Part shown: positions 8,585 through 25,948 of the stretch, piece after piece
Position numbering within the stretch: the first letter of the stretch is position 1
Layout: every line of letters starts with the position of its first letter
Origin: an uncultured Anaerolineae bacterium
GTDB lineage: Bacteria; Chloroflexota; Anaerolineae; JACIWP01
Length of the DNA stretch: 64,000 nt
Direction: 5' to 3'
NCBI GenBank assembly: GCA_938049385.1
Contig: CALIBQ010000012.1
Span: forward strand, 74,131 to 138,130
The notes under the pieces: generated by a model
What the model was told of the DNA's origin: nothing
What the model saw: the letters and a program-made list of their open reading frames with translations, nothing else
Database searches by the model: none
Position numbers and translations under genes: made by a program

Positions 8585-9205
8585 TCACTGCGCCGGCGCA
8601 CCGATAAACTCCTCATACAAGTCAGCGAACACCGCCGGCGCTACGGCGTATATCTGGCGTAGCATCTCTTTCGCTAGCTCTCGGATCTCCCACTGCGCGT
8701 CCTGCCGACAGCGCACGCGGAAGAAATGCCGCAGTTCGCGGAAGTTCATCGTCACCACGATGCGGGTCGCCGCGGCGTTGGGCAGGAGGAATCTGCTGTC
8801 CTCTTTACGCACCCCCCGTTCTCGCAGTTTGCGGTAGGCTTCCCTGGCCTGCTCCATGAACTCGTTCCAGATTTCCATGGCGGCCGGGTCGCCGGCGACA
8901 GCCGGCGGCACCACAAATTCCGCGTCCGACATATCCACGTAGCGCTGGGATTCCTGGGAATAGCTGGCCAGGCGGTGGCGCACCAGTTGATGCGAGCAGG
9001 CGCGCGAGATGCCCGTGATGTAAAAGGTGGCCGAGGCATGCTCGATGATGGATTCATGCCCCTCGCGCACGCGCTTCATGACGAAATCGCCGGCGTCGCC
9101 GCGCGGCGCACTGCGGTAGCAGACCCGGCCGGCGAACTCCAGCAGTTCCACCGGCGTGCCCCCGCCCTTCAAATAGCGCGTTAAGGCGATCAGCTCAACC
9201 TGCAT
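8585..9205 (-). CDS. thyX: Flavin-dependent thymidylate synthase ThyX
   Basis: ThyX motif RHRLASYSQESQRY; AGGAGG RBS; lies 30 nt downstream of the SdhA-like gene on the same strand. Confidence 0.85.
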   Translation of the reverse strand: MQVELIALTRYLKGGGTPVELLEFAGRVCYRSAPRGDAGDFVMKRVREGHESIIEHASATFYITGISRACSHQLVRHRLASYSQESQRYVDMSDAEFVVPPAVAGDPAAMEIWNEFMEQAREAYRKLRERGVRKEDSRFLLPNAAATRIVVTMNFRELRHFFRVRCRQDAQWEIRELAKEMLRQIYAVAPAVFADLYEEFIGAPAQ

Positions 9206-9234
9206 TATCCTCCTCCTGGCAGAGGGAAGCACCC

Positions 9235-10866
9235 TCAGCGGATCTTGCGCGTGTAGTCGGGCAGGACCTGGGGCGAGGGCTTGGCGGTTTCCAGCAGGCC
9301 GGCCTGCGCCAACTGCTGGTTCCAGGCGCGCACATGCTCCAGGGTCAGCCGGCCCAGGCGCACCTCTTTCGCAAGCTGGCCGGCGGCGCGGCCGGCGCGC
9401 CGGCCGAACACCACCACGTCCAGCAGGGAATTGCCCATCAGGCGGTTGCGGCCGTGCACGCCGCCGGAGGCCTCGCCGGCGACGAACAGGCCCGGGATGC
9501 CGGTGAAGCCGTCCGGCCTGATGGCGACGCCGCCGTTCTGATAGTGCAGGGTTGGGTAGACCAGCATGGGTTCTTTGGTGATATCAATGCCAAAGCGGCC
9601 GAACTGGCGCACCATGGCCGGCAGTGCCCGGGCGATGGTACCCGGACCGTGAATCATGTCAATCATGGGGGAGTCCAGCCAGACGCCCACCATGCCGGTG
9701 GGGGTGCGTACCCCTTTGCCGCGTTCCACACACTCACGGATAATGGCGGAAGCCTCCACATCGCGCGTCTCGCGTGGGAAGACGAACTGCTCGCCGTCCA
9801 CATTCACCACTTGGGCGCCCAGGCCGCGCACCTTTTCCGTGACCAGCAGGCCCAGTATCTGCTCGGGGTACGCCGCGCCAGTGGGGTGATACTGCATGGT
9901 GTCGATGAAGGCCAGCCGCGCGCCGGCGCGGTAGGCCAGCACCAGCCCGTCGCCGGTAGCGCCGTGGTGATTCGTGGTCGGGTATCCCTGATAATGCAGG
10001 CGGCCGCTCCCGCCCGTGGCGATGATGGTCGCCTTGGCGCGCACCACCAGATGTTCGCCGGTCTCCAGGTTTTGGAGCACTGCGCCGGCGACTTGCCCTT
10101 TATCGTCCATCAACAGCTCGATGGCCGGCGAGAATTCCAGCACCGTGATGTCCTCGGGATGACTGCGCACCTCATCCCGCAGAGTGCGCATGATTTCCGC
10201 GCCCGAATAGTCGCGTGCCGAGTGCATGCGCTTGCGCGAGGTGCCGCCGCCGTGGATGGTGATCAGCGTCCCGTCCGGCTCTTTGTCGAACATGCACCCC
10301 AAGCTCTCCAGCCACTGGATGACCAATGGGGCGTCGCGCACCAGCGCCTCCACCAGGTCGGGGTCATTGACGAAATGGCCGCCGCCCATGACGTCCAAGT
10401 AGTGGATGGCCGGCGAGTCGTTCTCCTTGTCCGCCGCCTGGATGCCGCCCTGGGCCATCATGGTGTTGGCGTCGCCGTGGCGGAGTTTTGTGGCGATGAT
10501 GACCTTGGCGCCTTGCTCGCGCGCCAGCAGCGCGGCGGCGGAGCCGGCGCCGCCCCCACCGATGACGAGCACGTCGGTGTCATAATCCACCTGCTCCAGG
10601 TCCAGCTTGTCCGGATCGATCAGCGGCCGGCCTTCCAGCAGATCGGCCAGCTCGTGCGGCGTGCGGTCCCCTTTGTTAGGCCCGATGCGGATTTCGCGGA
10701 AGGCCGAGGCGATATAATCCGGGTGGAAGCGGCGCAGAATCTCCTCCTTCTCCTGGGGGGACATCATGGGGAAGGTCTCATGCAGGCGCGCCGGCCGGCT
10801 CGCTTCCACCTTCTTGATGGATTCTCGCATTTCGGGCGGATAGCCCATCTTGCCATCCCATTCCAT
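9235..10866 (-). CDS. Succinate dehydrogenase/fumarate reductase-family flavoprotein (SdhA/FrdA/TfrA-like) with ~95-aa N-terminal extension
   Basis: VLVIGGGGAGSAAA FAD dinucleotide fold, MQYHPTG, RNRLMGNSLLDVVVFGRRAG signatures of SdhA/FrdA flavoproteins. Confidence 0.85.
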   Translation of the reverse strand: MEWDGKMGYPPEMRESIKKVEASRPARLHETFPMMSPQEKEEILRRFHPDYIASAFREIRIGPNKGDRTPHELADLLEGRPLIDPDKLDLEQVDYDTDVLVIGGGGAGSAAALLAREQGAKVIIATKLRHGDANTMMAQGGIQAADKENDSPAIHYLDVMGGGHFVNDPDLVEALVRDAPLVIQWLESLGCMFDKEPDGTLITIHGGGTSRKRMHSARDYSGAEIMRTLRDEVRSHPEDITVLEFSPAIELLMDDKGQVAGAVLQNLETGEHLVVRAKATIIATGGSGRLHYQGYPTTNHHGATGDGLVLAYRAGARLAFIDTMQYHPTGAAYPEQILGLLVTEKVRGLGAQVVNVDGEQFVFPRETRDVEASAIIRECVERGKGVRTPTGMVGVWLDSPMIDMIHGPGTIARALPAMVRQFGRFGIDITKEPMLVYPTLHYQNGGVAIRPDGFTGIPGLFVAGEASGGVHGRNRLMGNSLLDVVVFGRRAGRAAGQLAKEVRLGRLTLEHVRAWNQQLAQAGLLETAKPSPQVLPDYTRKIR

Positions 10867-10890
10867 AGCGTAAGCTCCTCTCTGGAGGCC

Positions 10891-11571
10891 TTATTCAGGT
10901 TCAATATCGCGAGTGTTGTAGAGCTGGCGCAGTTCGGCGTTGGAAAGCGATTTTAGGCGCTGGATATCCTGGTCGTAGAGGCCGGCCTCGATCTCCTGCA
11001 CGCGCTTGGCCAGGTGCTGGGCGCGCGGGGCGATGTATCTGCCGTACAGCCGGCGGGCCAGGATGAAGATATTGTACTGCGCCTCCTCCGCCGGACAGCG
11101 CGAGACACACATGCCGCACATGATGCAGTCGAAGGATTTGTCGGCCACGCCGGCGATGTCCCCGCGCATGGCGCGCGCCATAATGTCTTTGACATCCAGC
11201 TCCTGCGGGCAGACCTTGGTGCAGGTCCCACAGCCAAGACAGCGCAGTAGCTCCGGATACAGCGAGACCAGCGTCCCAAAGGTGGGCTGTAGTTGGGTGA
11301 TATCGTACTGGGCGCGCGGGGCCGGGTAGAAGGGGATCTGCGCCAGGTACATCCCCGGCTCGACGACCGTCTGACAGGCCAGCCCGACGCGCAGGCGGTA
11401 ATCGCCGGCCAGGCGGTACACCGTGGCGCAGGCGCCGCAGAAGCCGGCGCGGCACCCCACGCCCCGCACCAGACGGTAGCCGGCATACTCCATTGCCTTC
11501 ATGATGGTCAGCCCGGGCGGGACATCATAGCGCTTGCCCATGATATAGACGGGAACCAGCTCCTCAGCCAT
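10891..11571 (-). CDS. SdhB/FrdB-like iron-sulfur subunit (2Fe-2S + 4Fe-4S ferredoxin domains)
   Basis: CRAGFCGAC (plant-type 2Fe-2S), CLGCGTCTKVCP and CIMCGMCVSRCP cluster motifs; GGGAGGAG RBS; stop overlaps the RBS of the next gene. Confidence 0.8.
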   Translation of the reverse strand: MAEELVPVYIMGKRYDVPPGLTIMKAMEYAGYRLVRGVGCRAGFCGACATVYRLAGDYRLRVGLACQTVVEPGMYLAQIPFYPAPRAQYDITQLQPTFGTLVSLYPELLRCLGCGTCTKVCPQELDVKDIMARAMRGDIAGVADKSFDCIMCGMCVSRCPAEEAQYNIFILARRLYGRYIAPRAQHLAKRVQEIEAGLYDQDIQRLKSLSNAELRQLYNTRDIEPE

Positions 11572-11595
11572 TCCAGCACTCCTCCCGAAGCTCGC

Positions 11596-12708
11596 TTATT
11601 TCCCCAAATCCGTCAGCTCATCCTCGCGAAAAGCGGCCAGCGGCAGTTCCTCTTCCAGACTGCGGCCGGCCTCATAGTTGAACAGCGCCTGCACCGACTG
11701 CGCCACCGAGCGGAACAAGGTCGCCACCGGCAGGCGGTTTGGACAGGCGCTCTCGCACAGCCCGCACCCCACACACGAAGTCGCCATGTGATTCAATCGG
11801 GTGATGTGGAACAGCAGTGTATCGGTGGGCATGCGGATGACGCCCCGGCGCTCCGCCCAGCGGAAGTACTGCTCCGGCTCATGGTCGAAGGTCGGGGTGC
11901 GGAAGATGCACTCCTTGCAGTAGCAGATGGGGCAGGCCACCATGCAGTTGTGACAGCGGATACAGGTGGCGAAGCGTTCGGCCAGCCGGCGTAAGTCCGG
12001 CACTTCCGTCCGCCAGGCGGCAAACGCAGTATCCCGCTCCGCAGTGCGCCGCGCCCGCACCTGTTCCAGGACCTCCTGCCGGCGCGCCGGCACATCCGCC
12101 GGCGGCAGTTCCACCGGCAGGGGCTCCTTGCTCTCCACCAGCACCTGCCGCGGGAAATCCAGCCCGATCAGGCCGATGCGGATGTCGGCGTTGGCCGCCG
12201 TCGGATATTCGCACATGCGGCAGGCACTGCGCAGGGCACAGCCGTCCGCCGGCAGTGCCTCCCCCTGGGCCGCGCCCCGCCACAGCTCCGCCGGCTGTTT
12301 GCCGGCACGCACCAGGGCGGCATAGTCCACCACCTCATAGGTGCCCAGGCAGTCCACCGCGATGGTGCGCACATGCTCCAGCGTGGCCTGATGCAGTTTG
12401 GTCAGCTCGATGAGGGCGCGCAGTTCGCAGGGGCGGAGCCAGACGCCCACTCGCCGGCCGGTGTCCATGACGGTCAGCCGGCCGGCCATGGTAGCCATAT
12501 TGTGGGACATCACCGGCGCCAGCGGCTCGCAGGCTTCCAGCGCCTCAGGCGATTCCACCAGCGCCGGCATAACTGCCTCGTCGCCGGCCAGCCGGCAGGG
12601 CACCAGCAGGGCATCCACATATCCCGAGGTCAGCAGTTCCGCCAGGAATTTCCGCAGGGCGCCGGCCGCGTCTTCCCCTTCTACGGGCAACCAGGCTTGT
12701 ATCGTCAT
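11596..12708 (-). CDS. Fe-S/flavin oxidoreductase, FrhB-like (coenzyme F420 hydrogenase/dehydrogenase beta-subunit family) with C-terminal 2x[4Fe-4S] ferredoxin domain
   Basis: C-terminal CIRCHNCMVACP and CVGCGLCESACP; N-terminal ~220 aa resemble the FrhB/FdhB/AsrA-type flavin-binding module (tentative). Confidence 0.6.
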   Translation of the reverse strand: MTIQAWLPVEGEDAAGALRKFLAELLTSGYVDALLVPCRLAGDEAVMPALVESPEALEACEPLAPVMSHNMATMAGRLTVMDTGRRVGVWLRPCELRALIELTKLHQATLEHVRTIAVDCLGTYEVVDYAALVRAGKQPAELWRGAAQGEALPADGCALRSACRMCEYPTAANADIRIGLIGLDFPRQVLVESKEPLPVELPPADVPARRQEVLEQVRARRTAERDTAFAAWRTEVPDLRRLAERFATCIRCHNCMVACPICYCKECIFRTPTFDHEPEQYFRWAERRGVIRMPTDTLLFHITRLNHMATSCVGCGLCESACPNRLPVATLFRSVAQSVQALFNYEAGRSLEEELPLAAFREDELTDLGK

Positions 12709-12739: not shown

Positions 12740-13162
12740 TCAGCTCATGGGCAGTTCGCGCATGGGGTTAGGACCCAGCCGGCGGAGGTGCTCCACCATC
12801 TCAGTAACTGTGTCGGCAAAGCGCTGGCCCTCGCTGGCGCTGATCCATCTCAGCCAGACCCGCTGGGGGTCAAAGCCCAGCCCGGCCAAAATGGTGTGCA
12901 AGATGGCGATGCGCCGGCGGGCCTTGTAGTTGCCGCTCTGATAGTGGCAGTCGCCGGGATGACACCCACCGATAAGCACCCCATCTGCGCCCTCCAGCAG
13001 GGCTTTGGAGACATAGACCGGGTCCAGGGCGCCGGTGCACATCAGCCGGATGACGCGCACGTTGGGCGGATACTGCAGGCGCGAGGTGCCGGCCAGGTCC
13101 GCCGCTGTGTAGGTGCACCAATTGCACAAGAATGCCACGATGCGCGGCTCAAAATCCGCCAT
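12740..13162 (-). CDS. mvhD: MvhD-like (methyl-viologen-reducing hydrogenase delta subunit family) Fe-S protein
   Basis: RIVAFLCNWCTY…RLMCTG…GGCHPGDCHYQSGN is the MvhD/FlpD signature; start chosen at MADFEPR (GGAGGGG RBS); the listed ORF extends to 13357. Confidence 0.75.
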   Translation of the reverse strand: MADFEPRIVAFLCNWCTYTAADLAGTSRLQYPPNVRVIRLMCTGALDPVYVSKALLEGADGVLIGGCHPGDCHYQSGNYKARRRIAILHTILAGLGFDPQRVWLRWISASEGQRFADTVTEMVEHLRRLGPNPMRELPMS

Positions 13163-13176: not shown

Positions 13177-13824
13177 TCAGGTTTCGCGAATATCCAGTAT
13201 CTTCAGCACCGCTGGCTGTAGGGCTTTCTCCAGCTCTTCGATGCCCACGTCTGCTACTTTCATCAGGATTTGTCGGGTCGCCGGGTCCTCGCCCATGAAC
13301 GTCCCCAGGCTGACGATGTTGCCGCCGACGCCGGCGATGATCTCGGCCAGCCGGCACAGTTCACCCTTCTGGTCCAGGATGAGCACCGCGGCGCGCACCC
13401 CATGCTCCCAACCGCCCAGCAGTTCCAGGAAGGTGCGGAACAGGTCGGTTTCGGTGATGATGCCGATAAGCTTGCCGATGTCGTCCACCACCGGCAGGCC
13501 GCCGATCTTATGCTGTACCATCAATCGCGCGGCCTCTTCAATGGTGTTGGACTCCCGCACGGTGATGACATCGCTGGTCATCACATCCTTCACGGTGATG
13601 CGCGTCAGCAGGTACTGCATCTCGTAAAGGCTCAGGGTGGTCGCCGGCGAGGGCGCGGCGTACAGCAAATCCTTTTCCGATACAATGCCGACAAGCCGGC
13701 CGTTCTCATCCACAATCGGCAGACGGCGCACTCGTTTCTCGCGCATCAACCGCAGTGCCTCCGGCAGAGGCAGGTCGGGCGAGACGGCCACAGGCTGGCG
13801 CGACATGCGTTCCGCGACTAGCAT
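13177..13824 (-). CDS. CBS-domain pair protein with C-terminal ACT-like domain
   Basis: Two CBS motifs (…RRLPIVDENGRLVGIVSEKDLL; …GGLPVVDDIGKLIGIITETDLF); tandem paralog of the next gene. Confidence 0.8.
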   Translation of the reverse strand: MLVAERMSRQPVAVSPDLPLPEALRLMREKRVRRLPIVDENGRLVGIVSEKDLLYAAPSPATTLSLYEMQYLLTRITVKDVMTSDVITVRESNTIEEAARLMVQHKIGGLPVVDDIGKLIGIITETDLFRTFLELLGGWEHGVRAAVLILDQKGELCRLAEIIAGVGGNIVSLGTFMGEDPATRQILMKVADVGIEELEKALQPAVLKILDIRET

Positions 13825-13829
13825 CTGTC

Positions 13830-14549
13830 TCACTCCTTTCCAGCCGGCTCGGCTTCGCCAGGGGCTTCGGCGCGGCCGACCGCTTCCGCCGGCGCGCACT
13901 CCCGGATGTCCAGCAGGACGAATCCCCGTTCCTGTACGGCCCGTTCGGCGATCGCCCGCACCTGCTCCAGCGGCACCTCGGCGATGCGCAGGGTGAGCTG
14001 GCGCGTGCCGGGCCGTGGGCCGTGAAACTCGCCGGCGCTGAGGATATTCCCGCCGGCGGCCGCAATGTGCCGGCAGAGATAGGCGATCAGGCCCTTTTCG
14101 TCGGGGATGAGCATGGAAAGCCGCACCGCCGGCACTGGGGTGTCCAGCACTTCCAGGAACACCCGGAAGATATCGGTCTCGGTGATAATGCCCACCAGCT
14201 CCCCCTGGCTGAGCACCGGCAGAGCGTCCAGCTTGTGCTCCACCATCAGCCGGGCCGCTTCTTCCAGCGGGGCGTCGGCGTCCACGGTGATGGGGTTTTC
14301 GGTCATGATGCTGGCGATTTTCACCTGGGCCAGTTGATACAGCATCTCATGCAGGGTGATGGCCGCGGTAGGGGAAGGCGACACCAGGAGCAGGTCGTGC
14401 TCGGCCACAAAGCCCACCAGCCTGCCGGCATAATCCTGGACCGGCAGGTGATGCACCCCTTTCTCATGCATGATGTAGAAGGCGTCCTCCACCGAGGCCG
14501 TCGGCAGGATGGTCACCGGGTTGGGTGTCATATAGTGACGGACTAACAT
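13830..14549 (-). CDS. CBS-domain pair protein with C-terminal ACT-like domain (tandem paralog)
   Basis: HHLPVQDYAGRLVGFVAEHDLL and DALPVLSQGELVGIITETDIF CBS motifs; overlaps the end of the giant HdrA gene. Confidence 0.8.
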   Translation of the reverse strand: MLVRHYMTPNPVTILPTASVEDAFYIMHEKGVHHLPVQDYAGRLVGFVAEHDLLLVSPSPTAAITLHEMLYQLAQVKIASIMTENPITVDADAPLEEAARLMVEHKLDALPVLSQGELVGIITETDIFRVFLEVLDTPVPAVRLSMLIPDEKGLIAYLCRHIAAAGGNILSAGEFHGPRPGTRQLTLRIAEVPLEQVRAIAERAVQERGFVLLDIRECAPAEAVGRAEAPGEAEPAGKE

Positions 14550-17500
14550 GGTTTCTCCTCCTGGCCCGGCGCTTCCCACAGGCTGTCCAGCGCGGCGTCA
14601 ATGACCTGAAGCAGAGCCGGCGTCTCGAACAGCCGCTGTTGGGACGCGCCGTTGGGGCATACCATGGCGCAGGTGCCACAGCCGGCACAGAAGGCCGCCC
14701 GCACCTCCGCCACGTGCCGTTCGACGTTCATGACCCTGGCCTCAAAGGGGCAGGCACGCACGCACAGCTCACAGCCGGAGCAGAGCCGTTCGTTCACAAC
14801 GGCCACGCTCTCGACCGCCGTGCGCCGGCGCTCCCGCTGGGCCAAATATGAGGCCGCATGCGCGGCCGCCGCCTGACCCTGCAGTATTGCCTCTTCGGCG
14901 AAGCAGGGCCCCAGCACCGCGCCGCAGGCGAACAATCCGGGCTTGCCCAGGCTCGATGGGCGCATTTTCGGGTGTTCGGGGATCAGGTAGCCGTCGGCAT
15001 GGACCTGAGCGCCCAGCCCAGCGAGCCAGGACGGCAAGGCCGCCGGCACTGCGCCGACGCTCAGCACGATGGTATCCGCCGGCAGGCGCACTGGCCGGCG
15101 CAGTAGGGCGTCGTGGACCTCGACCTCCAATCCATCAGCGCCGTGCCGGACCAAGGGCGGGTGCTCCGCCTCATAGCGGACAAAGCGCACGCCGGCCCGC
15201 CGTGCCGTCAAATATTCCAGCTCATGCCGGCCGAAGGCGCGCATGTCGCGGTACAGGATGGCCACCTGGCTGGCCGGCTGGACCTCTTTCAGCCGCAGGG
15301 CATTGCGCAGGGCCTGGGCACAGCATGTCCGACTGCAGTACGGCCGCTCCGCGGTGCGCGAATCCACGCACTGCACCATGACCACATGACCGAAGTTTTC
15401 GCCGGCCTCCAGCCGGCGCGCCAGCTCGTCCTGCGTCATCACCCGCGGATCTTGGCCACAGCCAAAGGCGGACGTAGGCGCCGGCCGACTGCCAAGGGCG
15501 GCTATCAGCGCGCCGGCGCGCACCTGCTCCCTTCCAGCGCACGTCTCCAGCTCCAGCAGGTACGTTTCATCGGGCTGGCGGGAGGCGCTGATGACAGTGG
15601 TGCGGGTCAGCACCCGCACGCCGGCCGTCTGCTCCAGCCTGGCGGTGCGCTCCGCCAGCCAGGCCGCCGGGTCCTCGCCGTCGAGCCTGCCAGCAAGCTC
15701 CCGCAGATGCCCGCCCAACTGCGGCGCCTGTTCGACCAGCAGGACGCGCAGACCCAGCTCCGCCACCGCCAGTGCCGCCGAGATGCCGGCCGGCCCGCCC
15801 CCCACCACGACGCAGTCCACGAAGTCCGCCGCTTCGGGCATGGGGACGGCCGGCAGGATGGAACGCGGTGAAATGGGCCGGCGCAGAAGGCCAGCCGCCG
15901 CCATGCGCACGCTGTCCCAAAGGCCGTTAGCGGAATGGGCTGTCAGGTCACAGCCGGCCGGCCAACCTGCCTCGAGGTCCACCAGCTCGACGGCAGAGTC
16001 CGGCAGGCCCAGGGCACGCAGGACCTGCCCAAGGTTTGCCTCCACAGCCGGCGAGAAGCGCAAAGGTGCATCCACGATGACCAGCCGGTTGAGGCCAGCT
16101 TCGCCGGCATGCCGAAGCAAGGCATCGCGGCCGGCCGGCGAGGCCAGCGGAGGAATGCGTTCCACCAGGGCAATACCTCTCAGCCGGCGCAAGCGCCGTT
16201 CCAAGTCCTCCAGGGGTGCGGCATACTGCCGGCCGGCGCCCCCCAGGAAAATGCCCAATCGCGGCGGCTCATCCTCCAGCCCCGGCCGCACCGGTGGAGC
16301 TTCTTCCGCGACCCCAGGGGCGGCCGGCACACACATCGCGGCCAAGGCCGCCGCGGCGCCGGCCTCCACCACGCTGTGGACAATGTCCTTCGGTTCGCGG
16401 AACGCGCCGGCGGCGAACACGCCCGGGCGCGAGCTTTCCGCCGGCCGAAGCGCGATCGTGCGTGCGAATCCCTGGGCATCCAGCTCTATGCCCAGCGCCT
16501 GGGCCAGTTCGGCGGCTTCCGCCGGCGGCCCGAATCCCACCGCCAGCACTGCCAGGTCGAAGGCTTCCTCGTGCCGCTGGCCGGCCTCGTCCCAATATTC
16601 GATGATGACATCCTTACTGCGCTGGGACTGTTTGATGGTGGAGACCTGACAGCGCACGTAGCGGATGCCGGGCGCGTGGATCCGGCCGGCCATGTAATAC
16701 TCATCCTCCCGGCCCTGGGCGCGCAGGTCTATGTAAAACACCATGCATTCCGCATCTGGCTCCAGTTCCCGGGCGGCCGCGGCCTGTTTGACGGTGATGG
16801 TACAGCAGATGGAGGAGCAGTACGGCCGGCCCAGGGCGGGGTCGCGCGAGCCGACACAGCTAATGAACGCCAGCCGGCGTGCCGGCCGCCCATCCGCTGG
16901 GCGCACCAGCCGGCCGCGCGTACTGCCCGAGAAGCTGATCATGCGCTCGAACTGGATGCTGGTCACCACATTGTCCAGCACCCCGAAGCCGTATTCCCCT
17001 TTACGCTCGGCGGGGAAAGGCTCGAAGCCCGGGGAGGCGATCACTGCGCCGGCGCGCAAAGTTAGGGTCTCGGCCGACATCTCCAGGTCAATGGCGCCCT
17101 CCGGACAAGCTTCCACACAGACGCCGCAGTGCGTGCAGAGCGCCGGATCAATGACGAAGGCGCGCGGCACTGCCCGCCAGGGCGGCCGATAAATGGCCTG
17201 GCGCGGGGCCAGAGTGCCCTCATCGAACGAGGGGCCAGAAACGGGGCAAACGGCCAGGCATTCCCCGCAGGCGGTGCACAGGGCTGGGTCCACATAGCGG
17301 GGAAGCCGGCGCAGGGCCAATCGGAAATCGCCAGTCTCGCCCTCCAGCGCGGTCACTTGGGTCAGCGGATAGATGGATAGCAGGGGACTGCGGGCGCTCT
17401 CCAGGGTGGGGCAGTACGTCGGCGAGAGGCCAGCCTCCATAAAGCACAGACCGCATGAATCGGTGGGGAAGGTGCGGTCCAGCAGATGGAATGAACCGCC

Positions 17501-17644
17501 GATCCAGGGAGCAGTATCGAGCAAAGCGACGCGCCGGCCCAGGCTGGTCAGCAGGAAGGCGGCCTGCATGCCGGCGATGCCGGCGCCGACGATGGCTACG
17601 TCCACGCGTTCTACCTCTTGCTCATCCCGAGCAGGCAAAGGCAT
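14543..17644 (-). CDS. hdrA: Giant tandem-HdrA fusion (two heterodisulfide reductase subunit A-like FAD/Fe-S modules in one polypeptide)
   Basis: Module 1: VAIVGAGIAGMQAA, CGLCF…YCP, CTACGECLAVCP, CTHCGVCVEACP, FISCVGSRD…YCSSICC. Pro/Ala-rich linker. Module 2: CVVVGGGPAGISAA, VQCVDSRTAERPYCSRTCC, CSGCELCVRACP, CAGCGTCAMVCP. ATG 17644 chosen (GGGGGA RBS); GTG at 17680 is also possible. Confidence 0.8.
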   Translation of the reverse strand: MPLPARDEQEVERVDVAIVGAGIAGMQAAFLLTSLGRRVALLDTAPWIGGSFHLLDRTFPTDSCGLCFMEAGLSPTYCPTLESARSPLLSIYPLTQVTALEGETGDFRLALRRLPRYVDPALCTACGECLAVCPVSGPSFDEGTLAPRQAIYRPPWRAVPRAFVIDPALCTHCGVCVEACPEGAIDLEMSAETLTLRAGAVIASPGFEPFPAERKGEYGFGVLDNVVTSIQFERMISFSGSTRGRLVRPADGRPARRLAFISCVGSRDPALGRPYCSSICCTITVKQAAAARELEPDAECMVFYIDLRAQGREDEYYMAGRIHAPGIRYVRCQVSTIKQSQRSKDVIIEYWDEAGQRHEEAFDLAVLAVGFGPPAEAAELAQALGIELDAQGFARTIALRPAESSRPGVFAAGAFREPKDIVHSVVEAGAAAALAAMCVPAAPGVAEEAPPVRPGLEDEPPRLGIFLGGAGRQYAAPLEDLERRLRRLRGIALVERIPPLASPAGRDALLRHAGEAGLNRLVIVDAPLRFSPAVEANLGQVLRALGLPDSAVELVDLEAGWPAGCDLTAHSANGLWDSVRMAAAGLLRRPISPRSILPAVPMPEAADFVDCVVVGGGPAGISAALAVAELGLRVLLVEQAPQLGGHLRELAGRLDGEDPAAWLAERTARLEQTAGVRVLTRTTVISASRQPDETYLLELETCAGREQVRAGALIAALGSRPAPTSAFGCGQDPRVMTQDELARRLEAGENFGHVVMVQCVDSRTAERPYCSRTCCAQALRNALRLKEVQPASQVAILYRDMRAFGRHELEYLTARRAGVRFVRYEAEHPPLVRHGADGLEVEVHDALLRRPVRLPADTIVLSVGAVPAALPSWLAGLGAQVHADGYLIPEHPKMRPSSLGKPGLFACGAVLGPCFAEEAILQGQAAAAHAASYLAQRERRRTAVESVAVVNERLCSGCELCVRACPFEARVMNVERHVAEVRAAFCAGCGTCAMVCPNGASQQRLFETPALLQVIDAALDSLWEAPGQEEKPC

Positions 17645-17669
17645 TTCGATGATTCCCCCGACTGTCGGC

Positions 17670-18233
17670 TCAGAACTCACCGCGGTGGTCGGTGAGGTAC
17701 ATCACCAGCACCGCCATATCATACGTCTCCCCGTCATGCGTGATGAAATAATCGCGGTGCTGGTACTCCAGCTTGAAGCCCATTTCCTCGAAGGCGCGGA
17801 TGACCTTGGGCTGGGTGACCGCCACCTCCGCGATGACCTGCTGAAGCCCCATCATACGGGCGATATCGATTTGGGAGCGGATCATGGCGGTGCCGATGCC
17901 GCGCCGGCGGAACTCTTTGTCGAGATAAATATGGATCCAGGCAATGTGCCGTGTGTAATTTTCCCCCACGAATAATGTGGACAGCCCCACAATGCGCTCA
18001 TTCACCAGCGCGATGAGGGGAAAGGTGCGGGAATAATTGATGTTTTTGCACCACTGCGTGATGGAATCGGGCGTGGAAATATCAAAGCGGAAATATTCCT
18101 TGTCCTCCGGGCTGACGCGCGATAGCAAATCCACCAGCTTCTCGGCATCGTTGGCCATCAGCGGGCGGAAGAGCACCCGCGGCCCATCCTTCAGGATTTC
18201 GATGTGGCGGTAGTTCAACAATCGGTCTAACAT
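17670..18233 (-). CDS. GNAT-family N-acetyltransferase embedded in the hdr operon
   Basis: RRRGIGTAMIR acetyl-CoA binding motif; GGGGAGG RBS before ATG 18233. Confidence 0.8.
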   Translation of the reverse strand: MLDRLLNYRHIEILKDGPRVLFRPLMANDAEKLVDLLSRVSPEDKEYFRFDISTPDSITQWCKNINYSRTFPLIALVNERIVGLSTLFVGENYTRHIAWIHIYLDKEFRRRGIGTAMIRSQIDIARMMGLQQVIAEVAVTQPKVIRAFEEMGFKLEYQHRDYFITHDGETYDMAVLVMYLTDHRGEF

Positions 18234-18331
18234 GTCTGCCTCCCCTGGCCTCTTCATGCTCTGCCGTGGTATGACGCCTTCGCCGCGTTGTGCAAATTAT
18301 ACTGCGAGACAGGCAGGGCGCAACTCCCCCG

Positions 18332-19195
18332 TTATGATAACAACCCCAGCCGGCGCAGAAGGGGGCGCGGGTCCACGATGTGCCGGCCAAATAGGCCAGT
18401 CACTTCATCCAATCCCAGCGCCAGGCCCAGCAGTTCCGTAACGTAAAAGACTGGCATTGGCTGGGGACGTCGGCCCTGCCGGCCGTCCAGGTTCGCCTGG
18501 CAGAGGGGGCAGGCGGTCACGATGCAGTTGGCGCCGGCGTCCTCCGCCGCGCTGACCAGCCGGCCCACCAACCGCGCCACAATGTCCCCCCGGTTCAGGG
18601 TCATGCTGGCCCCGCAACAGTCCGTGGCATAGGTCCAGCGGCTTGGTTCCGCCCCCAGCAGTTCCAGCAGGCGGTCCAGCTTGACCGGGTGCTCGGTGTC
18701 GTCCCACGCGCCGGCGATCTGCGGCGGACGCAGGAGCAGACAGCCGTAGTAGCTCACCGGGCGCAGGCCAGTCAGCGGTTTGCGCAGATGGGCGCGTAGT
18801 TCCTCCGGCGGGAAATCGGAGGTCAGGATATCGAGCAGGGCGCGCGGCCTGGCCTGGCCGGCGTACTCCCTGCCGATGACCTGTTCCATCTGCTGGCGGA
18901 AGGCCTCATCCTCCCGCAGGCGGCGGTCGGCGCTGGAGAGTCGGCCGTAGCAGGCGGCGCAGGGGATGGCAATATCGCGGCCCAGCGGCTGTGCCAGCAG
19001 GATGTTGCGTGCCGGCAGGGCATCCGCCAGCTCCCCGCCCAGGCTGTGCGCGGACGAAGCCCCACAGCAATTCCAATCCTCGATCTCGACCAGTTCCACC
19101 CCCAGCGCCCGGCACACGGCCCGCGTGGAGACGCCGTACTCCAGACCGGTGGAGTGCAGGGTACAGCCAGGGTAGAAGGCATAGGAGCGGCTCAT
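18332..19195 (-). CDS. hdrB: Heterodisulfide reductase subunit B-like (two CCG domains), copy 2
   Basis: CCG-domain cysteine patterns (FYPGCTL, WNCCGAS, AACYGRL, YYGCLL, DCCGAS, ACPLCQ). Confidence 0.85.
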   Translation of the reverse strand: MSRSYAFYPGCTLHSTGLEYGVSTRAVCRALGVELVEIEDWNCCGASSAHSLGGELADALPARNILLAQPLGRDIAIPCAACYGRLSSADRRLREDEAFRQQMEQVIGREYAGQARPRALLDILTSDFPPEELRAHLRKPLTGLRPVSYYGCLLLRPPQIAGAWDDTEHPVKLDRLLELLGAEPSRWTYATDCCGASMTLNRGDIVARLVGRLVSAAEDAGANCIVTACPLCQANLDGRQGRRPQPMPVFYVTELLGLALGLDEVTGLFGRHIVDPRPLLRRLGLLS

Positions 19196-19758
19196 TCTCG
19201 CCCCTCCGGTGTTTCAGCGGCATGGGCGCCGGCGGCCTCGAACAGGCGTGCGATCTCCTGCCGGCGGCGGATAACTTGAGGGAGCGGCGGCAGTTTGCGC
19301 GCCAGCAGGAGCCGGGCACCCAGGTCCAAGTTGGACAGCAGGTCGAGGGAGCGCAGTTTGTACTCCACGATCATGGTGATCTCGTGCACCCGGCCGAAGC
19401 GCCGCAGGTTGTTCAGGAAGGCGCGGTGGAATTGGTATATCGCCGGCGCGCCCACCCGTACCCCTTCCTCCGCCGCCATCTGGCGCAGGGCGTCGTTGAT
19501 GCGCCCCACACAAATCCCGTTGGGACAGCGGGTGCCGCAGGTCTCGCACCCGACGCACATCCAGATGGCCTGGCTGGAAAGGAGCGCACGGCGTTCGCCC
19601 ATCTGCACCATATGCACGATTTGCGCCGGGTCATAGTCCATGACGAAGGCGGTGGGACAGCCGGCAGTGCACTTGCGGCACTGGTAGCATGTCGCGATGG
19701 GCTGACCGCTCCGCTCCGCCACGATGTCCATGAAGCGCCAATCTATCGGACTGCTCAT
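19192..19758 (-). CDS. hdrC: Heterodisulfide reductase subunit C-like (2x[4Fe-4S]), copy 2
   Basis: CYQCRKCTAGCP and CVGCETCGTRCP; ATGA start/stop overlap with the upstream hdrA. Confidence 0.8.
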   Translation of the reverse strand: MSSPIDWRFMDIVAERSGQPIATCYQCRKCTAGCPTAFVMDYDPAQIVHMVQMGERRALLSSQAIWMCVGCETCGTRCPNGICVGRINDALRQMAAEEGVRVGAPAIYQFHRAFLNNLRRFGRVHEITMIVEYKLRSLDLLSNLDLGARLLLARKLPPLPQVIRRRQEIARLFEAAGAHAAETPEGRE

Positions 19759-21512
19759 GCGCCCTCCTGCGCCTTCGCCGGCGCGAACAGCACATCCACC
19801 ATGGCGAGCACCTGTTCGGGGGTGTAGTTGCGCAGTTTGCTGGCCTTGTTCGGGCAGACCGTGGCGCAGGCACCGCATCCCTGGCACAGCGCGGCGTTGA
19901 CCGTCACCAGGGGCTTCCAGGGATGGGGCCGGCGGGCCTCGTAGGGACAGGCCGGCACGCAGAGCTGGCAGGCGGAGCACAGCTCCGGGTCTACCCAGGC
20001 GATGGTCGGCTCCTGCACCAGTTCATGGCGCGAGAAGAGGGAGAGCACCTTGGCGGCAGCCGCGCTGGCCTGGGAGAGGGTTTCGGGAATATCCTTCGGG
20101 CCCTGTGCCGCGCCGGCCAGGTAAATGCCGGCGGTCAGGCTCTCCACCGGCCGCAGTTTGGGATGCGCCTCATTGAAAAAGCCGTGCGCATCGGTGCCCA
20201 CCCGCAGGCGCTGGGCCAGGTCACGCGCATCTGCTCGCGGCACCACCGCCGTCGCCAGCACCACCAGGTCCGCGGCGATCTCCACCTGCTGGCCGCTCAA
20301 TGTATCGGCTCCCCAGACGATGACCTTATCGCCGTCGCGGAATATCTTTGATACCTTGCCGCGCAGGTACAGCACGCGCTCCTCTTCCATAGCGGCCTGG
20401 ACGAATTCCTCGGCGCCCTTGCCGCCGGAGCGGATGTCAATATAGAAGACATAGGCCTGGCCGTCAGGAGACTGCCGGCAGAACAGCCGCGCCTGCTTGG
20501 CGGTGTACATACAGCATATCTTGGAGCAGTAGGGCATGGCGTGTTCGGGGTCGCGCGAGCCGGCACACTGCACGAAAACCACCTCTTTGGGCGGCCGGCC
20601 GTCGGAGGGCCGCAGTACCCGCCCACCGGTGGGGCCATCTGGACGCAGGAGAGCCTCCATCTCCAGGCCGGAGATGACGTCGGGGACAGCGCCGGCGCCG
20701 TACTCGGGGAGCTGTTTCATGGGATACAGGTCGAAGCCGGTGGCCACGACGATGGCGCCGACGCTTGCCTCCTGCACCTGGTCCTCGCCCCGCCGGCGGA
20801 TGCGCACCGTGAAGTTCCCCACGTAGCCGTTGAGCGATTCCACCTCGCTCTCTGTCAGGACGGTGATCTCGGGGCGTGCGCGCAAGGCATCCAGCTTCTG
20901 CGCCAGCAGGTCGCCGGCCGATTCGAAATTGAGATAGGTGCCGGAGAGCTGGGCCATGCGTCCGCCCAGTTGCGCCTCGCGCTCCACCAGCAGGACGGGG
21001 AAGCCGGCTTCGGCGATGTCCAGCGCCGCCTGGATGCCGGCAATGCCCCCGCCGATAACCAGGGCACGGCGCACCACCGGCAGGGTGAATGGGAGCAGTT
21101 CCTCATCGTAGCGCACCTTCTCGATGATGGTGCGGATGACCTCGATAGCCTTGCGGGTGGCGGCGTCCGGGTCCTTGGCGTGCACCCAGGAGACCTGCTC
21201 GCGGATGTTGGCGATCTCGACGCGATAGGGGTTCAGGCCGGCGCTCTCGGCGTTGCGCCGGAAGGTGGCCTCGTGCATGGTGGGGGAACAGGCGGCCACG
21301 ACGATGCCGTCCAGCTTCTCCTCGGCGATCTTGCGGCGGATCAGCTCCTGTCCCGGTTCGGAGCACATGTACTTGTAGTCCAGGGCCACCAGCACCGCCG
21401 GCGCATCCTTGAACGCGTCCAGCACCTGCGGGATGTCCACGGTGCCGGCGATGTTCAGACCGCAGTGGCAGACGAACAGACCGATACGGTGGGCCTTAGT
21501 TTTCGCCGGCAT
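19755..21512 (-). CDS. hdrA: Heterodisulfide reductase subunit A-like, full-length (N-terminal CHCG Cys domain + FAD + ferredoxin domains)
   Basis: N-terminal RIGLFVCHCGLNIAG; GGGIAGIQAA; VQCAGSRDPEHAMPYCSKICC; CSACQLCVPACP and CQGCGACATVCP. Confidence 0.85.
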   Translation of the reverse strand: MPAKTKAHRIGLFVCHCGLNIAGTVDIPQVLDAFKDAPAVLVALDYKYMCSEPGQELIRRKIAEEKLDGIVVAACSPTMHEATFRRNAESAGLNPYRVEIANIREQVSWVHAKDPDAATRKAIEVIRTIIEKVRYDEELLPFTLPVVRRALVIGGGIAGIQAALDIAEAGFPVLLVEREAQLGGRMAQLSGTYLNFESAGDLLAQKLDALRARPEITVLTESEVESLNGYVGNFTVRIRRRGEDQVQEASVGAIVVATGFDLYPMKQLPEYGAGAVPDVISGLEMEALLRPDGPTGGRVLRPSDGRPPKEVVFVQCAGSRDPEHAMPYCSKICCMYTAKQARLFCRQSPDGQAYVFYIDIRSGGKGAEEFVQAAMEEERVLYLRGKVSKIFRDGDKVIVWGADTLSGQQVEIAADLVVLATAVVPRADARDLAQRLRVGTDAHGFFNEAHPKLRPVESLTAGIYLAGAAQGPKDIPETLSQASAAAAKVLSLFSRHELVQEPTIAWVDPELCSACQLCVPACPYEARRPHPWKPLVTVNAALCQGCGACATVCPNKASKLRNYTPEQVLAMVDVLFAPAKAQEGA

Positions 21513-22848
21513 GGACCACCTCCGGAACAGCTTGCCAGCGGGCGAAGAGGGCGAGCACCTTGGCGGCCGCGGCGCTGGCCTGCGCGACGGTTTCGGGGAT
21601 ATCGCGCGGGCCGACCGCCGCGCCGGCGATGAACACTCCCGGCCGGCGGGTGCTCACCGGCTCCAGGTTGGGGTTGACCTCCTGCAGGAAGCCGTGCGCA
21701 TCCACGTCAATGCCCAGCAGTTCTGCCAGCCGGCGCGTCTCCGGCCGCGGCACGATGGCCGTTGCCAGCACTACCATGTCCGCGGCGATCTCCACCTGCT
21801 GGCCGCTGAGGGTATCCGCCCCCCAAACCACCACTTTGTCGCCGTCGCGGAAAATCTTGGAGACCTTGCCGCGCAGGTACAGCACGCGGTCCTCCTCGAC
21901 GGCGCGCTGGAGAAACTCCTCATAGCGCCGGCCGGCGGTGCGGATGTCAATGTAAAAGACGTAGGCCTGGCCGTTCGGCACCCGATGGCGGTACAGCATG
22001 GCGTGCTTGGCGGTGTACATACAGCAGATGGTAGAGCAGTAGGGCATGGCCTTTTCCGGGTCGCGCGAGCCGGCACACTGCACGAAAACCACTTCTTTCG
22101 GCTCGCGCCCGTCGGAGGGCCGGCGGATTTTGCCGGCGGTGGGGCCGGAGGCGGACAGCAGTCGCTCGAAGGCCAGGCCGCTGATGACGTCCGGCACCTG
22201 GCCGGCGCCGTACTCGCCCAGGCGCGTTACATCGTACAGGTCATAGCCGGTGGCCAGGATGACGGCGCCGGCCTCAATCTCGAACAGCGCATCCTCCTGG
22301 TCGTAGGCGATAGCACCGGTAGGACAGAACTTCTCGCAGACGCGGCATTTGCCCTGGGTGAAGAAGCGGCAGCGCGCTTTATCAATGATCGGCTTGTTGG
22401 GCACGGCCTGCGGGGAAAGGGTGTAGATGGCCTTGCGCCGGCCCAGGCCCATATCAAAATCGGACTCCACACGCGTCGGGCATTTCTCGATGCACACGCC
22501 GCAGCCGGTGCAGATATCCCAGTTGACGCCGGCCGCGCGCCGGCGGATGCGCGCCCGGAAATGTCCGACCTCCCCCTGGATGTCCTCGACCTCGGCGTAG
22601 GTGATGAGATGGATGTTGGGATGGTGGCCAACCTCAACGGTGCGCGGGGTCAGGATGCACTGGGCGCAGTCCAGGGTGGGGAAGGTCTCCGATAACTGCG
22701 CCATGTGCCCGCCGATGGAGGGGAGCTTCTCCACCAGGGTAACCTCGTAGCCGGAATTGGCGATATCCAGCGCGGCCTGCATGCCGGCGATGCCGGCGCC
22801 GATGATGAGGGCATGCGGGTTCGGCGCACCAGTGTGCCGGGTCATCAT
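21496..22848 (-). CDS. hdrA: Heterodisulfide reductase subunit A-like paralog lacking the N-terminal Cys domain
   Basis: Starts directly at IIGAGIAGMQAA; inserted ferredoxin CTGCGVCIEKCP, CRVCEKFCP; VQCAGSRDPEKAMPYCSTICC; long stretches ~85% nt-identical to 19755-21512. Confidence 0.85.
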   Translation of the reverse strand: MMTRHTGAPNPHALIIGAGIAGMQAALDIANSGYEVTLVEKLPSIGGHMAQLSETFPTLDCAQCILTPRTVEVGHHPNIHLITYAEVEDIQGEVGHFRARIRRRAAGVNWDICTGCGVCIEKCPTRVESDFDMGLGRRKAIYTLSPQAVPNKPIIDKARCRFFTQGKCRVCEKFCPTGAIAYDQEDALFEIEAGAVILATGYDLYDVTRLGEYGAGQVPDVISGLAFERLLSASGPTAGKIRRPSDGREPKEVVFVQCAGSRDPEKAMPYCSTICCMYTAKHAMLYRHRVPNGQAYVFYIDIRTAGRRYEEFLQRAVEEDRVLYLRGKVSKIFRDGDKVVVWGADTLSGQQVEIAADMVVLATAIVPRPETRRLAELLGIDVDAHGFLQEVNPNLEPVSTRRPGVFIAGAAVGPRDIPETVAQASAAAAKVLALFARWQAVPEVVHAGEN

Positions 22849-23747: not shown

Positions 23748-23777
23748 GCTCCAGTGCGTGTAATGATCTGCTCGGCG

Positions 23778-24185
23778 TCAGGCCGTGTATTTGCGGAAGC
23801 CGGCAATGAATGCCTGCTGAGGGAACTCGGCCAGCGCCTGCACATCCAGCCGGGCGATCTCCAGATGATCGCCTCGCTTCTGCATGGCCAGCTCCCGCAG
23901 GGCCTCCATCAGCCGCGGCAGGTCTACCCCTTTGGGACAGCGCGCGTAGCAGGTCTGGCAGGCCGCGCAGTACCAGATGGTCTGGCTTTCCAACGCGCGC
24001 TCGACCTGGCCCAATTGGACCAGCCGGATGATCTGGTTGGGCAGGAGGTCCATGACCTCCGCGGCCGGACAGCCGGCGGAGCACTTGCCGCAGTGATAGC
24101 AGGCCATCACATCCTGGCCGCTGACCTCCTCAATGCGCCGCACCCATTCGGAACGCACCTGCTCGACAGAAATTGTCACGCGCAT
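23778..24185 (-). CDS. hdrC: Heterodisulfide reductase subunit C-like (2x[4Fe-4S]), copy 1
   Basis: CYHCGKCSAGCP and CAACQTCYARCP. Confidence 0.8.
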   Translation of the reverse strand: MRVTISVEQVRSEWVRRIEEVSGQDVMACYHCGKCSAGCPAAEVMDLLPNQIIRLVQLGQVERALESQTIWYCAACQTCYARCPKGVDLPRLMEALRELAMQKRGDHLEIARLDVQALAEFPQQAFIAGFRKYTA

Positions 24186-24188
24186 GGG

Positions 24189-25627: not shown

Positions 25628-25694
25628 GGATGGCGTCCTCCCGCCTGCGTATGTAGGATGTGGTACCTGCTCTGCCCTAGGGGGAATAAAACAA

Positions 25695-25758: not shown

Positions 25759-25948
25759 TGCGGAAACCCATGTCCTTCCTATGGGTAAACCTCGTTTCCC
25801 GGCACGACCTGCATGCCAACCGACAGCGATTATGGGCCGCATGGATGGTTCATCTTCACCAATAAAAATTGTTCAATATGCTGTCAATGCCAGCCTGTGC
25901 TCCATTATAATACGAGCAAGGCTTTTGTCCAAATGTGAAACAGATTGC

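Follow-up and report, generated by a model that had tools for sequence, protein, structure and literature searches.

How does a fumarate reductase-like enzyme that has no membrane anchor receive its electrons? The question is raised by a locus in 64,000 nucleotides of DNA from an uncultured Anaerolineae bacterium of the Chloroflexota (contig CALIBQ010000012.1, positions 74,131 to 138,130; assembly GCA_938049385.1), a stretch referred to here as the window. Genes for a flavoprotein and an iron–sulfur (Fe-S) subunit lie there beside genes for an FdhB-like protein and for MvhD. It appears probable that the Fe-S subunit and the flavoprotein form the core of a soluble, quinone-independent fumarate reductase that is fed by Hdr-type proteins. 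This reading rests on the genes present, their cofactor motifs and active-site residues, their homologies and the neighborhoods that are conserved. Beyond it, we infer how the complex assembles, which way the electrons flow, what the donor is and that fumarate reduction is coupled to ferredoxin reduction through an HdrA flavin.

All four genes are present, and all are encoded on the minus strand:

12740-13162, minus strand: MvhD/ElpC-type [2Fe-2S] connector, 140 amino acids (Pfam FlpD, 181.8 bits)
11596-12708, minus strand: FdhB/ElpB-like Fe-S protein, 370 amino acids (PDB, profile and Foldseek matches to FdhB/ElpB)
10891-11571, minus strand: Fe-S subunit of the predicted fumarate reductase, 226 amino acids (Fer2 and Fer4 dicluster; HdrC/SdhB-like C-terminal half)
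9235-10866, minus strand: predicted fumarate reductase flavoprotein with predicted non-covalent FAD, 543 amino acids (FAD_binding_2; motif and family alignment)

As the genes lie on the minus strand, the order of transcription is MvhD, FdhB-like protein, Fe-S subunit and flavoprotein. The original prediction, made from the sequence of the window, had the catalytic pair followed by an FrhB-like gene and MvhD. Both genes exist, but they precede the pair. MvhD had also been counted within a region that ends at position 12708, and its gene lies beyond that end.

The catalytic pair

The flavoprotein contains an FAD_binding_2 domain over residues 98-481 (Pfam, 243.2 bits against a threshold of 20.4). 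The HPTG and RNRLMGNSL motifs named in the original prediction are found at residues 327-330 and 473-481, respectively. The best NCBIfam model is that of TfrA (NF004900), with 358.6 bits over model positions 5-427 of 546, and the SdhA/FrdA and NadB models rank after it. This score is approximately half of the TfrA equivalog cut-off of 718 bits, which is not reached. Among solved structures, M. smegmatis SdhA and NadB give the best matches.

An alignment of 16 orthologues with 63-80% identity, from Anaerolineae, Bacillota, Dehalococcoidales, Planctomycetota, Omnitrophota and WOR-3, shows that the residues of the fumarate/succinate site (H327, T343/E344/R347, R368-D369, H441 and R475) are invariant in all 16. 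R368-D369 occupies the position of the proton-donor Arg, within ETRDVEASAI, the equivalent of PRDIVARAI. A phmmer alignment to NadB had put this Arg at IIRECV and is overruled by the family alignment. At residue 134 an Asn (GDANTMMAQGG), likewise invariant in the family, aligns with the His that holds the covalent FAD of M. smegmatis SdhA, and the FAD is predicted to be bound non-covalently. In enzymes of the FrdA/SdhA type, a non-covalent FAD allows fumarate reduction but not efficient succinate oxidation, for which a covalent FAD is needed.

The ends of the protein depart from those of its characterized relatives. Pfam Succ_DH_flav_C, which describes the C-terminal helical domain of SdhA, gives no match, and all models stop at approximately residue 500-520 of 543. 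At the opposite end there is a conserved extension of approximately 93 residues that is absent from TfrA, SdhA and NadB and that contains the invariant residues Y9, R24, H48-P49-D50, G62, G66, E72 and E78. This extension (residues 1-93) could act as a docking element that substitutes for the missing C-terminal domain. The earlier description of the protein as SdhA-like applies to the active site, which is intact, but the extension, the unmatched C-terminal domain and Asn134 set it apart from a full SdhA. An AlphaFold2 (AF2) model, built on a shallow alignment (77-94% identity), reached a predicted local distance difference test (pLDDT) score of 61 and was not used for a fold search. One relative, P0034, is 840 amino acids long compared with the usual length of approximately 540, and may represent a fusion to a neighboring subunit or a merge in gene calling.

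The Fe-S subunit carries a [2Fe-2S] motif, CRAGFCGAC...C (Cys40/45/48/66), and two complete CxxCxxCxxxCP motifs (Cys111-121 and Cys149-159). The latter correspond to two [4Fe-4S] clusters and not to one [4Fe-4S] and one [3Fe-4S], and the predicted content of one 2Fe-2S and two 4Fe-4S centers is borne out by all three motifs. A [2Fe-2S] motif followed by two cluster motifs is the layout of SdhB and TfrB, and the C-terminal half of the subunit resembles HdrC. The scores are low: 35.8 bits against a cut-off of 88 for the SdhB/FrdB model TIGR00384, likewise a score below the cut-off for the TfrB model of NCBIfam, and an E value of 5.6e-5 for the best SdhB structure.

The operon and its electron carriers

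The four genes belong to an operon of 17 minus-strand genes that runs from 25702 down to 8585 once the flanks are re-read, with every neighboring pair overlapping or separated by at most 74 nucleotides. The gene order is FumA, FumB, HdrC1, HdrB1, HdrA517, HdrA585, HdrC2, HdrB2, GNAT, HdrA1045, CBS, CBS, MvhD, FdhB-like, Fe-S subunit, flavoprotein and ThyX. Three HdrA proteins, two HdrC/HdrB pairs and a fumarase thus share an operon with the catalytic pair, a context that the original prediction had missed. Besides the four genes given above, the features are:

25904-25931, minus strand: promoter-like site TGGACA-16-TATAAT preceding the fumarase gene that opens the operon, 11/12 matches, a consensus match only
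24782-25702, minus strand: class I fumarate hydratase alpha subunit (Pfam Fumerase, 398 bits; likely start 25627)
24189-24785, minus strand: class I fumarate hydratase beta subunit (Pfam Fumerase_C, 187 bits)
23778-24185, minus strand: HdrC1, HdrC-like, 135 amino acids, two [4Fe-4S] motifs (Fer4_8/Fer4_17 matches)
22845-23747, minus strand: HdrB1, HdrB-like, 300 amino acids, two CCG domains (Pfam CCG twice, 86 bits)
21496-22848, minus strand: HdrA517, an HdrA core of FAD domain and inserted ferredoxin domain (NCBIfam HdrA2, 488 bits, residues 77-504); the open reading frame (ORF) reaches 23049 and the likely start is 22848
19755-21512, minus strand: HdrA585, HdrA-like, with N-terminal domain and C-terminal ferredoxin domain (NCBIfam HdrA2, 602 bits; Pfam matches)
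19192-19758, minus strand: HdrC2, HdrC-like, 188 amino acids (NCBIfam HdrC, 66 bits)
18332-19195, minus strand: HdrB2, HdrB/SdhE-like, 287 amino acids, two CCG domains (Pfam CCG, 84.5 bits)
17670-18257, minus strand: GNAT acetyltransferase (Pfam Acetyltransf_1), within the operon between HdrB2 and HdrA1045
14543-17680, minus strand: HdrA1045, with a pair of HdrA-like modules and a number of ferredoxin domains (Pfam Pyr_redox_2 and several Fer4; NCBIfam HdrA2, 577 bits over 3 stretches)
13830-14579, minus strand: CBS-pair protein (Pfam CBS twice)
13177-13899, minus strand: CBS-pair protein with ACT-like domain (Pfam CBS twice and a weak TTHA0829-like ACT match); kept at this place in numerous related loci
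8585-9232, minus strand: ThyX, last gene of the operon (NCBIfam thyX, 185 bits, over its cut-off)

The original prediction stated that no SdhC/D-type membrane subunit is encoded in the operon. This holds for the entire operon, as no membrane-like segment was found in any of the 17 proteins by a 19-residue Kyte–Doolittle scan; the highest mean, 1.87, is located on a Rossmann motif. Its comparison with the cytoplasmic, anchor-less thiol:fumarate reductases of archaea is also well placed, with TfrA as the top model (below its cut-off) and a fumarase at the head of the operon.

HdrB1 and HdrB2 each keep all ten Cys of the two non-cubane cluster sites. For HdrB2, the NCBIfam scores for HdrB (144.7 bits) and for the SdhE of methylmenaquinol:fumarate reductase (MFR; 138.5 bits) are both under the cut-off. 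The thyX gene starts 2 nucleotides past the stop codon of the flavoprotein, a linkage found also in L001 and L005 and not in other loci, and ThyX is probably a passenger. The window has a G+C content of approximately 65%. Two plus-strand ORFs, 19295-19636 (113 amino acids) and 22908-25316 (802 amino acids), have no family matches and are discarded as antisense artifacts of this high G+C content. The real minus-strand genes beneath them are HdrC2, HdrB1, HdrC1 and FumB/FumA. HdrC2 had been missed in crude ORF calling because an antisense ORF overlies it, which illustrates how long antisense ORFs in DNA of high G+C content can hide genes from naive calling.

Over its whole length, the 370-amino acid protein is homologous to archaeal FdhB/ElpB. 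Its sequence alone matches the beta subunits of F420-dependent formate dehydrogenase in the PDB (E values of 1.7e-23 to 1e-18), and a profile of 35 relatives aligns with FdhB/ElpB over the full length (positions 10-359) with E values of 3.4e-43, 2.4e-37 and 1.1e-33. An AF2 model (pLDDT of approximately 90 over residues 1-240) retrieves ElpB (8rvu_E) and FdhB (7bkb_E) at the top of a Foldseek search, followed by FrhB, Fsr and HCAR. A relationship to AsrA or the sulfhydrogenase beta subunit was rejected, at an E value of 0.09 compared with 1.7e-23 (sequence) and 3.4e-43 (profile) for FdhB. The original prediction had named best matches to AsrA or another non-F420 family, together with an absence of F420 biosynthesis genes, as what would speak against it; this did not arise, since the protein matches FdhB/ElpB and not AsrA.

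The MvhD protein covers the whole FlpD model (positions 1-123 of 123; 181.8 bits against a threshold of 22.3) and has five Cys. In archaea, ElpB/FdhB binds FAD and four [4Fe-4S] clusters, and the arm that it forms with ElpC/MvhD feeds HdrA (PMC12350162). The MvhD and FdhB-like pair is on this account homologous to the ElpC/ElpB (MvhD/FdhB) arm of methanogens.

The flavin-binding features of that arm have been lost. In FrhB, the FAD is held by the loops 23-30 (with 24-QDGG around the pyrophosphate), 71-77 (G73-T77) and 131-138, and a subdomain with a three-stranded sheet forms the wall of the F420 channel (PMC3930138). Two of the three loops are replaced throughout the FdhB-like family. In the pyrophosphate loop, QDGG in FrhB and ECGG in FdhB, the GG gives way to Leu (23 of 35 sequences) followed by Gly, Ala or Glu, and the second loop, GSLHC in FdhB with the motif GSxH/Y, is an invariant DPLAPV. 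Approximately 17 residues of the F420-channel sheet are deleted, according to the alignment as well as the AF2 model, which has no sheet in residues 149-175. The Pfam domain FrhB_FdhB_N (PF04422) is not matched, and FrhB_FdhB_C (PF04432) reaches 21.2 bits, below its threshold of 23.3; among 120 relatives, PF04432 is found in approximately 9 and PF04422 in none. Fifteen Cys are invariant in the 35 sequences, namely C94, C120, C163 and C166 of the N-terminal cluster and 11 in the C-terminal part.

The earlier term Fe-S flavoprotein is thus half apt: the Fe-S ligands are present, but with the FAD motifs absent the flavin part of the label is doubtful. The protein is probably a flavin-free wire of four Fe-S clusters, as judged from its sequence and model. 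It seems that this bacterial branch of the F420-dependent FdhB/ElpB family has kept only the Fe-S wire. This is the most economical reading, and such a flavin-less protein would be a parallel to ElpA, a cofactor-less remnant of FdhA (PMC12350162). Two remoter paralogues (L055, 4608-5798 and 8118-9191), with 26-31% identity to the window protein, lie beside the reductase core. Paralogues of this kind are found with the core in some clades; the DPLAPV loop is common to them, but their C-terminal Cys are fewer.

Related loci and known systems

A scan with one genome per species gave at least 594 confirmed relatives. The best 80 loci were examined, and partners were counted in the 49 of these whose upstream sequence extends for 6 kb or more. 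The Fe-S and flavoprotein genes are adjacent in 78 of the 80. A CCG-domain protein (HdrB/HdrD) is the most constant partner (36/49), followed by HdrA (33/49), acyl-CoA dehydrogenase (22/49), MvhD plus FdhB-like protein (18/49) and fumarase or malic enzyme (11/49); a single locus of the 49 lacks any Hdr, MvhD, FdhB-like protein or acyl-CoA dehydrogenase. Across the 80 loci, fumarase and/or malic enzyme genes flank the pair in approximately 16, from Anaerolineae, Bacillota and Dehalococcoidales, and no SdhC/SdhD-type anchor gene was seen. The MvhD gene lies directly upstream of the FdhB-like gene in 21 of 32 copies. Owing to the repeated linkage to fumarase and malic enzyme across phyla and to the intact active site, fumarate is the likely substrate of the flavoprotein.

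Several arrangements can be distinguished. Close relatives are annotated as proteins of Anaerolineae metagenome-assembled genomes, and the Anaerolineae isolate RSWS7 (L001; JAPWUQ01) is 97% identical with the same gene order as the window. Anaerolineae loci of the window type have HdrA, (CBS), MvhD and FdhB-like genes before the pair, whereas a second Anaerolineae type (L004, L024) has FumA-FumB-HdrC-HdrB-HdrA517-HdrA585, (CBS) and then the pair. The window operon looks like this second type with a set of modules, apparently HdrC2-HdrB2-GNAT-HdrA1045-CBS-CBS-MvhD-FdhB-like, inserted before the catalytic pair. In Bacillota, (FumAB)-HdrC-HdrB precede the pair; these include the cultured Desulfofundulus thermobenzoicus DSM 14055, in which the operon is HdrC-HdrB-FeS-flavoprotein only. 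HdrC1 and HdrB1 share 44% and 47% identity with the Desulfofundulus HdrC and HdrB that lie beside the reductase genes, compared with 36% for HdrC2 and 31% for HdrB2, and are the orthologues of the Bacillota HdrCB pair found next to fumarase and reductase genes. Dethiobacter has FumA-FumB-malic enzyme and then the pair, and Dehalococcoidales have malic enzyme, FumA, the pair, a small ferredoxin, acyl-CoA dehydrogenase and FumB. A further Anaerolineales clade has HdrD-HdrA-FdhB-like2-ferredoxin-FeS-acyl-CoA dehydrogenase-FdhB-like3-flavoprotein, and an Mvh-type NiFe hydrogenase is encoded close by.

Other genes recur around the pair. A CBS homologue (53-60% identity) holds the position between HdrA and MvhD in many related loci, and the CBS-pair proteins of the window (13177-14579) suggest a ligand-sensing regulatory subunit. 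GNAT homologues are found in or beside related clusters (L001, L030, L038; on the opposite strand in L037/L048/L055). The reductase operon of the Dehalococcoidales and of one Anaerolineales clade also encodes an acyl-CoA dehydrogenase and a small ferredoxin of 150 amino acids (L076 11676-13318, L055 5849-9191, L052, L064, L070, L078, L080), and in L076 these two even separate the fumarase alpha gene from the beta gene. The arrangement is a hint of an electron link between acyl-CoA and fumarate or of a second high-potential acceptor. On the opposite strand, a large subunit of Mvh-type NiFe hydrogenase occurs with MvhD, HdrA and HdrB in L055 (12326-13924, minus strand) and also in L037, L048 and L053, and H2 is a possible donor in Anaerolineales genomes with such an adjoining hydrogenase.

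The nearest characterized enzyme is the archaeal TfrAB of Methanothermobacter. Both are soluble and anchor-less with a flavoprotein of the SdhA/NadB class, and in both the electrons pass through a [2Fe-2S] and di-[4Fe-4S] module associated with HdrB-type CCG domains. The module and the CCG protein are fused in TfrB but are encoded by separate genes here. Further differences are the 93-residue N-terminal extension and the lack of the usual C-terminal domain, the partners HdrA, MvhD and FdhB-like protein, a setting in which coenzyme M and coenzyme B are not expected, and scores of about half the TfrA cut-off and far under that of TfrB.

The ElpABC-HdrABC (8rvu) and FdhAB-MvhD-HdrABC (7bkb) complexes of methanogens (PMC12350162) share with the window the full-length ElpB/FdhB alignment, an MvhD/ElpC homologue with HdrA neighbors, and the cluster Cys. 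They differ in the FAD and F420 features that are lost here, in the divergent HdrA paralogues and in the bacterial host. Moreover, the position of FdhA/ElpA, a low-potential donor, would here be held by a high-potential acceptor, the fumarate reductase.

An anchor-less two-gene fumarate reductase has been described together with Flx-Hdr and fumarase in the succinate operon of Pseudoclostridium thermosuccinogenes (PMC7282089), and next to Flx-Hdr in tubeworm symbionts (reductive tricarboxylic acid cycle clusters) and Thioflavicoccus (PMC6315080); bifurcation was proposed in both reports. The combination of fumarase, HdrABC-type proteins that include an MvhD-like subunit and an anchor-less reductase of two genes is common to those systems and the window (PMC7282089, PMC6315080), a comparison by gene content with systems that were themselves proposed from gene clusters. 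Unlike them, the window operon has no FlxABC NADH module, and has instead an FdhB-like protein without flavin motifs, three HdrA, two HdrCB pairs, CBS and GNAT proteins. A 2026 survey lists many "incomplete AB" fumarate reductases without an assigned partner, and describes in Hydrogenobacter thermophilus a soluble, five-subunit fumarate reductase that depends on NADH and not on quinones and whose catalytic subunit is of the SdhA type (PMC13147460). The window system would likewise be soluble, multi-subunit and quinone-independent with an SdhA-type catalytic subunit, but an NADH-binding subunit is not evident in it. The genes of the Hydrogenobacter enzyme of Miura (2008) are reportedly scattered and not in one operon.

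In type E succinate:quinone oxidoreductases and in MFR (SdhABE), a CCG subunit of the HdrB type replaces the haem-b anchor, and HdrB2 resembles the SdhE of MFR. Its score is far under the 500-bit cut-off, the FAD here is predicted to be non-covalent, both 4Fe-4S motifs of the Fe-S subunit are complete, and the HdrA, MvhD and HdrC context points to a cytoplasmic system and not to a quinone-linked one. In the QmoABC-AprAB system of sulfate reducers, HdrA-like flavoproteins and an MvhD-type domain are thought to feed a soluble reductase made of an Fe-S protein and an SdhA-class flavoprotein. At the domain level, delivery from HdrA-like proteins and MvhD to such a reductase may be analogous here, but the substrate site is of the fumarate type and not of the adenosine 5′-phosphosulfate type, and the membrane protein QmoC is absent. 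A literature search found no description of the Chloroflexota arrangement.

Proposed routes of the electrons to fumarate

In the proposed scheme, the fumarase would convert malate to fumarate, which the flavoprotein would reduce to succinate in the cytoplasm at its non-covalent FAD. This FAD would be supplied by the [2Fe-2S] and two [4Fe-4S] clusters of the Fe-S subunit. The electrons would in turn be delivered by the Hdr-type proteins (HdrC1/HdrB1, the three HdrA, and MvhD with the FdhB-like protein) in place of a membrane anchor. They could travel directly from HdrA through MvhD and the FdhB-like protein to the Fe-S subunit, by analogy with the docking of FdhA/ElpA on FdhB/ElpB, the four-cluster wire joining HdrA/MvhD to the reductase core. 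Alternatively, their path could lead through HdrC1/HdrB1, in the manner of the minimal operon of Bacillota. The fumarate/succinate couple has a potential of +33 mV, far above those of NAD(P)H and ferredoxin, and the HdrA flavin could for this reason take fumarate as the high-potential and ferredoxin as the low-potential acceptor. A bifurcating supercomplex, in which the HdrA flavin splits an electron pair and sends the high-potential electron through MvhD, the FdhB-like protein and the Fe-S subunit to fumarate and the low-potential electron to ferredoxin, is offered tentatively, as a possible form of the system that has less than an even chance of being correct.

A number of points weigh against a reductase core that is wired to Hdr-type proteins. 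The fumarate reductase role of the whole family is a prediction from sequence, and the loss of flavin from the FdhB-like protein is likewise deduced from motifs and a model. There is no obvious input module for NAD(P)H, H2 or formate in the operon. The reductase sits on what is the electron-donor arm in methanogens, a topology that has no direct precedent for an acceptor. The two complete HdrB proteins suggest that a thiol/disulfide chemistry may stand in between, in place of direct wiring. In one clade, the gene for an acyl-CoA dehydrogenase stands between the Fe-S and flavoprotein genes, for which reason the core may serve other partners too.

Thiol chemistry is the basis of one alternative, a bacterial thiol:fumarate reductase of the TfrAB type in which HdrB would oxidize a thiol pair or protein dithiol and pass the electrons through the Fe-S subunit to fumarate, while the HdrA modules would belong to a separate enzyme that re-reduces the disulfide. 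The rank of TfrA among the family models, the constancy of the CCG-domain partner, the HdrC-HdrB-FeS-flavoprotein operon of Bacillota and the ten conserved Cys in both HdrB proteins all agree with it. It is nevertheless considered unlikely, as the scores fall far under the TfrA and TfrB cut-offs and the MvhD and FdhB-like pair directly beside the core suggests direct wiring. We know of no thiol of the coenzyme M/coenzyme B type in these bacteria, and CCG proteins such as LutA, GlpC and SdhE also act without thiols. The original prediction favored F420H2 or NAD(P)H as the soluble carrier, oxidized by the FdhB-like protein as a dehydrogenase that passes the electrons to the Fe-S subunit and the flavoprotein. 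Such an oxidoreductase would fit the full-length homology to F420-dependent FdhB and ElpB, the transfer of hydride from F420H2 to FAD in ElpB (PMC12350162), the production of F420 by some Chloroflexi (PMC8498797) and the position of the FdhB-like gene immediately upstream of the pair. Against it stand the replaced FAD loops, the deleted F420-channel sheet and the missing or sub-threshold Pfam domains in the window protein and its relatives, and many orthologous reductase operons have no FdhB-like protein at all. This carrier assignment is not upheld, and the probability left to it is small. No F420 biosynthesis genes (cofC/D/E/G/H, fbiC) are present among the annotated ORFs of the 64-kb window, which says nothing on the rest of the genome.

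The pair could also run in reverse, as a soluble succinate dehydrogenase that confurcates with reduced ferredoxin at HdrA in syntrophic or oxidative metabolism. Reverse electron transfer would be in keeping with the Hdr-type context, fumarase and malic enzyme are compatible with either direction, and an Mvh-type NiFe hydrogenase adjoins some related loci. The occurrence of Asn134 in place of the covalent-FAD His in every orthologue examined, together with the reductive function of the nearest analogues in the literature, makes this direction very improbable. An equally slight chance is given to another substrate for the flavoprotein, either L-aspartate, as for NadB, or a different enoate or acyl compound. 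The NadB models and structures score nearly as high as those of SdhA, where NadB has its specific Glu121 there is a nearly invariant His205, and acyl-CoA dehydrogenase genes lie within some related operons. Identity with NadB is, however, rejected: Glu121 itself is absent, nadA and nadC are not nearby, the operon includes a fumarase gene both here and in several phyla, and NadB has no Fe-S subunit, such as accompanies the flavoprotein. The Hdr-fed fumarate reductase is retained as the preferred reading.

Two other regions of the window were noted. A branched-chain-type ATP-binding cassette (ABC) transporter followed by tandem MttB-family methyltransferases (30745-32199 and 32208-33698) occupies 26028-33698 on the plus strand, which suggests the demethylation of a quaternary amine, e.g., glycine betaine. 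A homologue of aldehyde:ferredoxin oxidoreductase (60031-62025, plus strand; NCBIfam 301 bits, under the cut-off) fits a ferredoxin-based anaerobic metabolism.

The reduction of fumarate by NADH releases a large amount of energy that is normally captured only via quinones and membranes. A soluble, Hdr-wired fumarate reductase has so far been proposed from gene clusters only, in a succinate-producing clostridium and in tubeworm symbionts. The catalytic pair described here keeps 63-80% identity across phyla and is matched in at least 594 species-level genomes, with partner sets that vary from HdrCB alone to HdrA/HdrCB, MvhD/FdhB-like protein and acyl-CoA dehydrogenase. As it occurs in the cultured D. 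thermobenzoicus DSM 14055, the question is directly testable. The system also bears on the question of whether flavin-based electron bifurcation can be driven by fumarate. A soluble reductase wired to bifurcating Hdr-type flavoproteins would let strictly fermentative bacteria store the energy of fumarate reduction as reduced ferredoxin. If the bifurcating supercomplex is correct, it would be the first re-use of the FdhB/MvhD donor arm of methanogens as an acceptor arm, and quinone-free fermenters in at least five phyla would gain an energy-conserving succinate branch.

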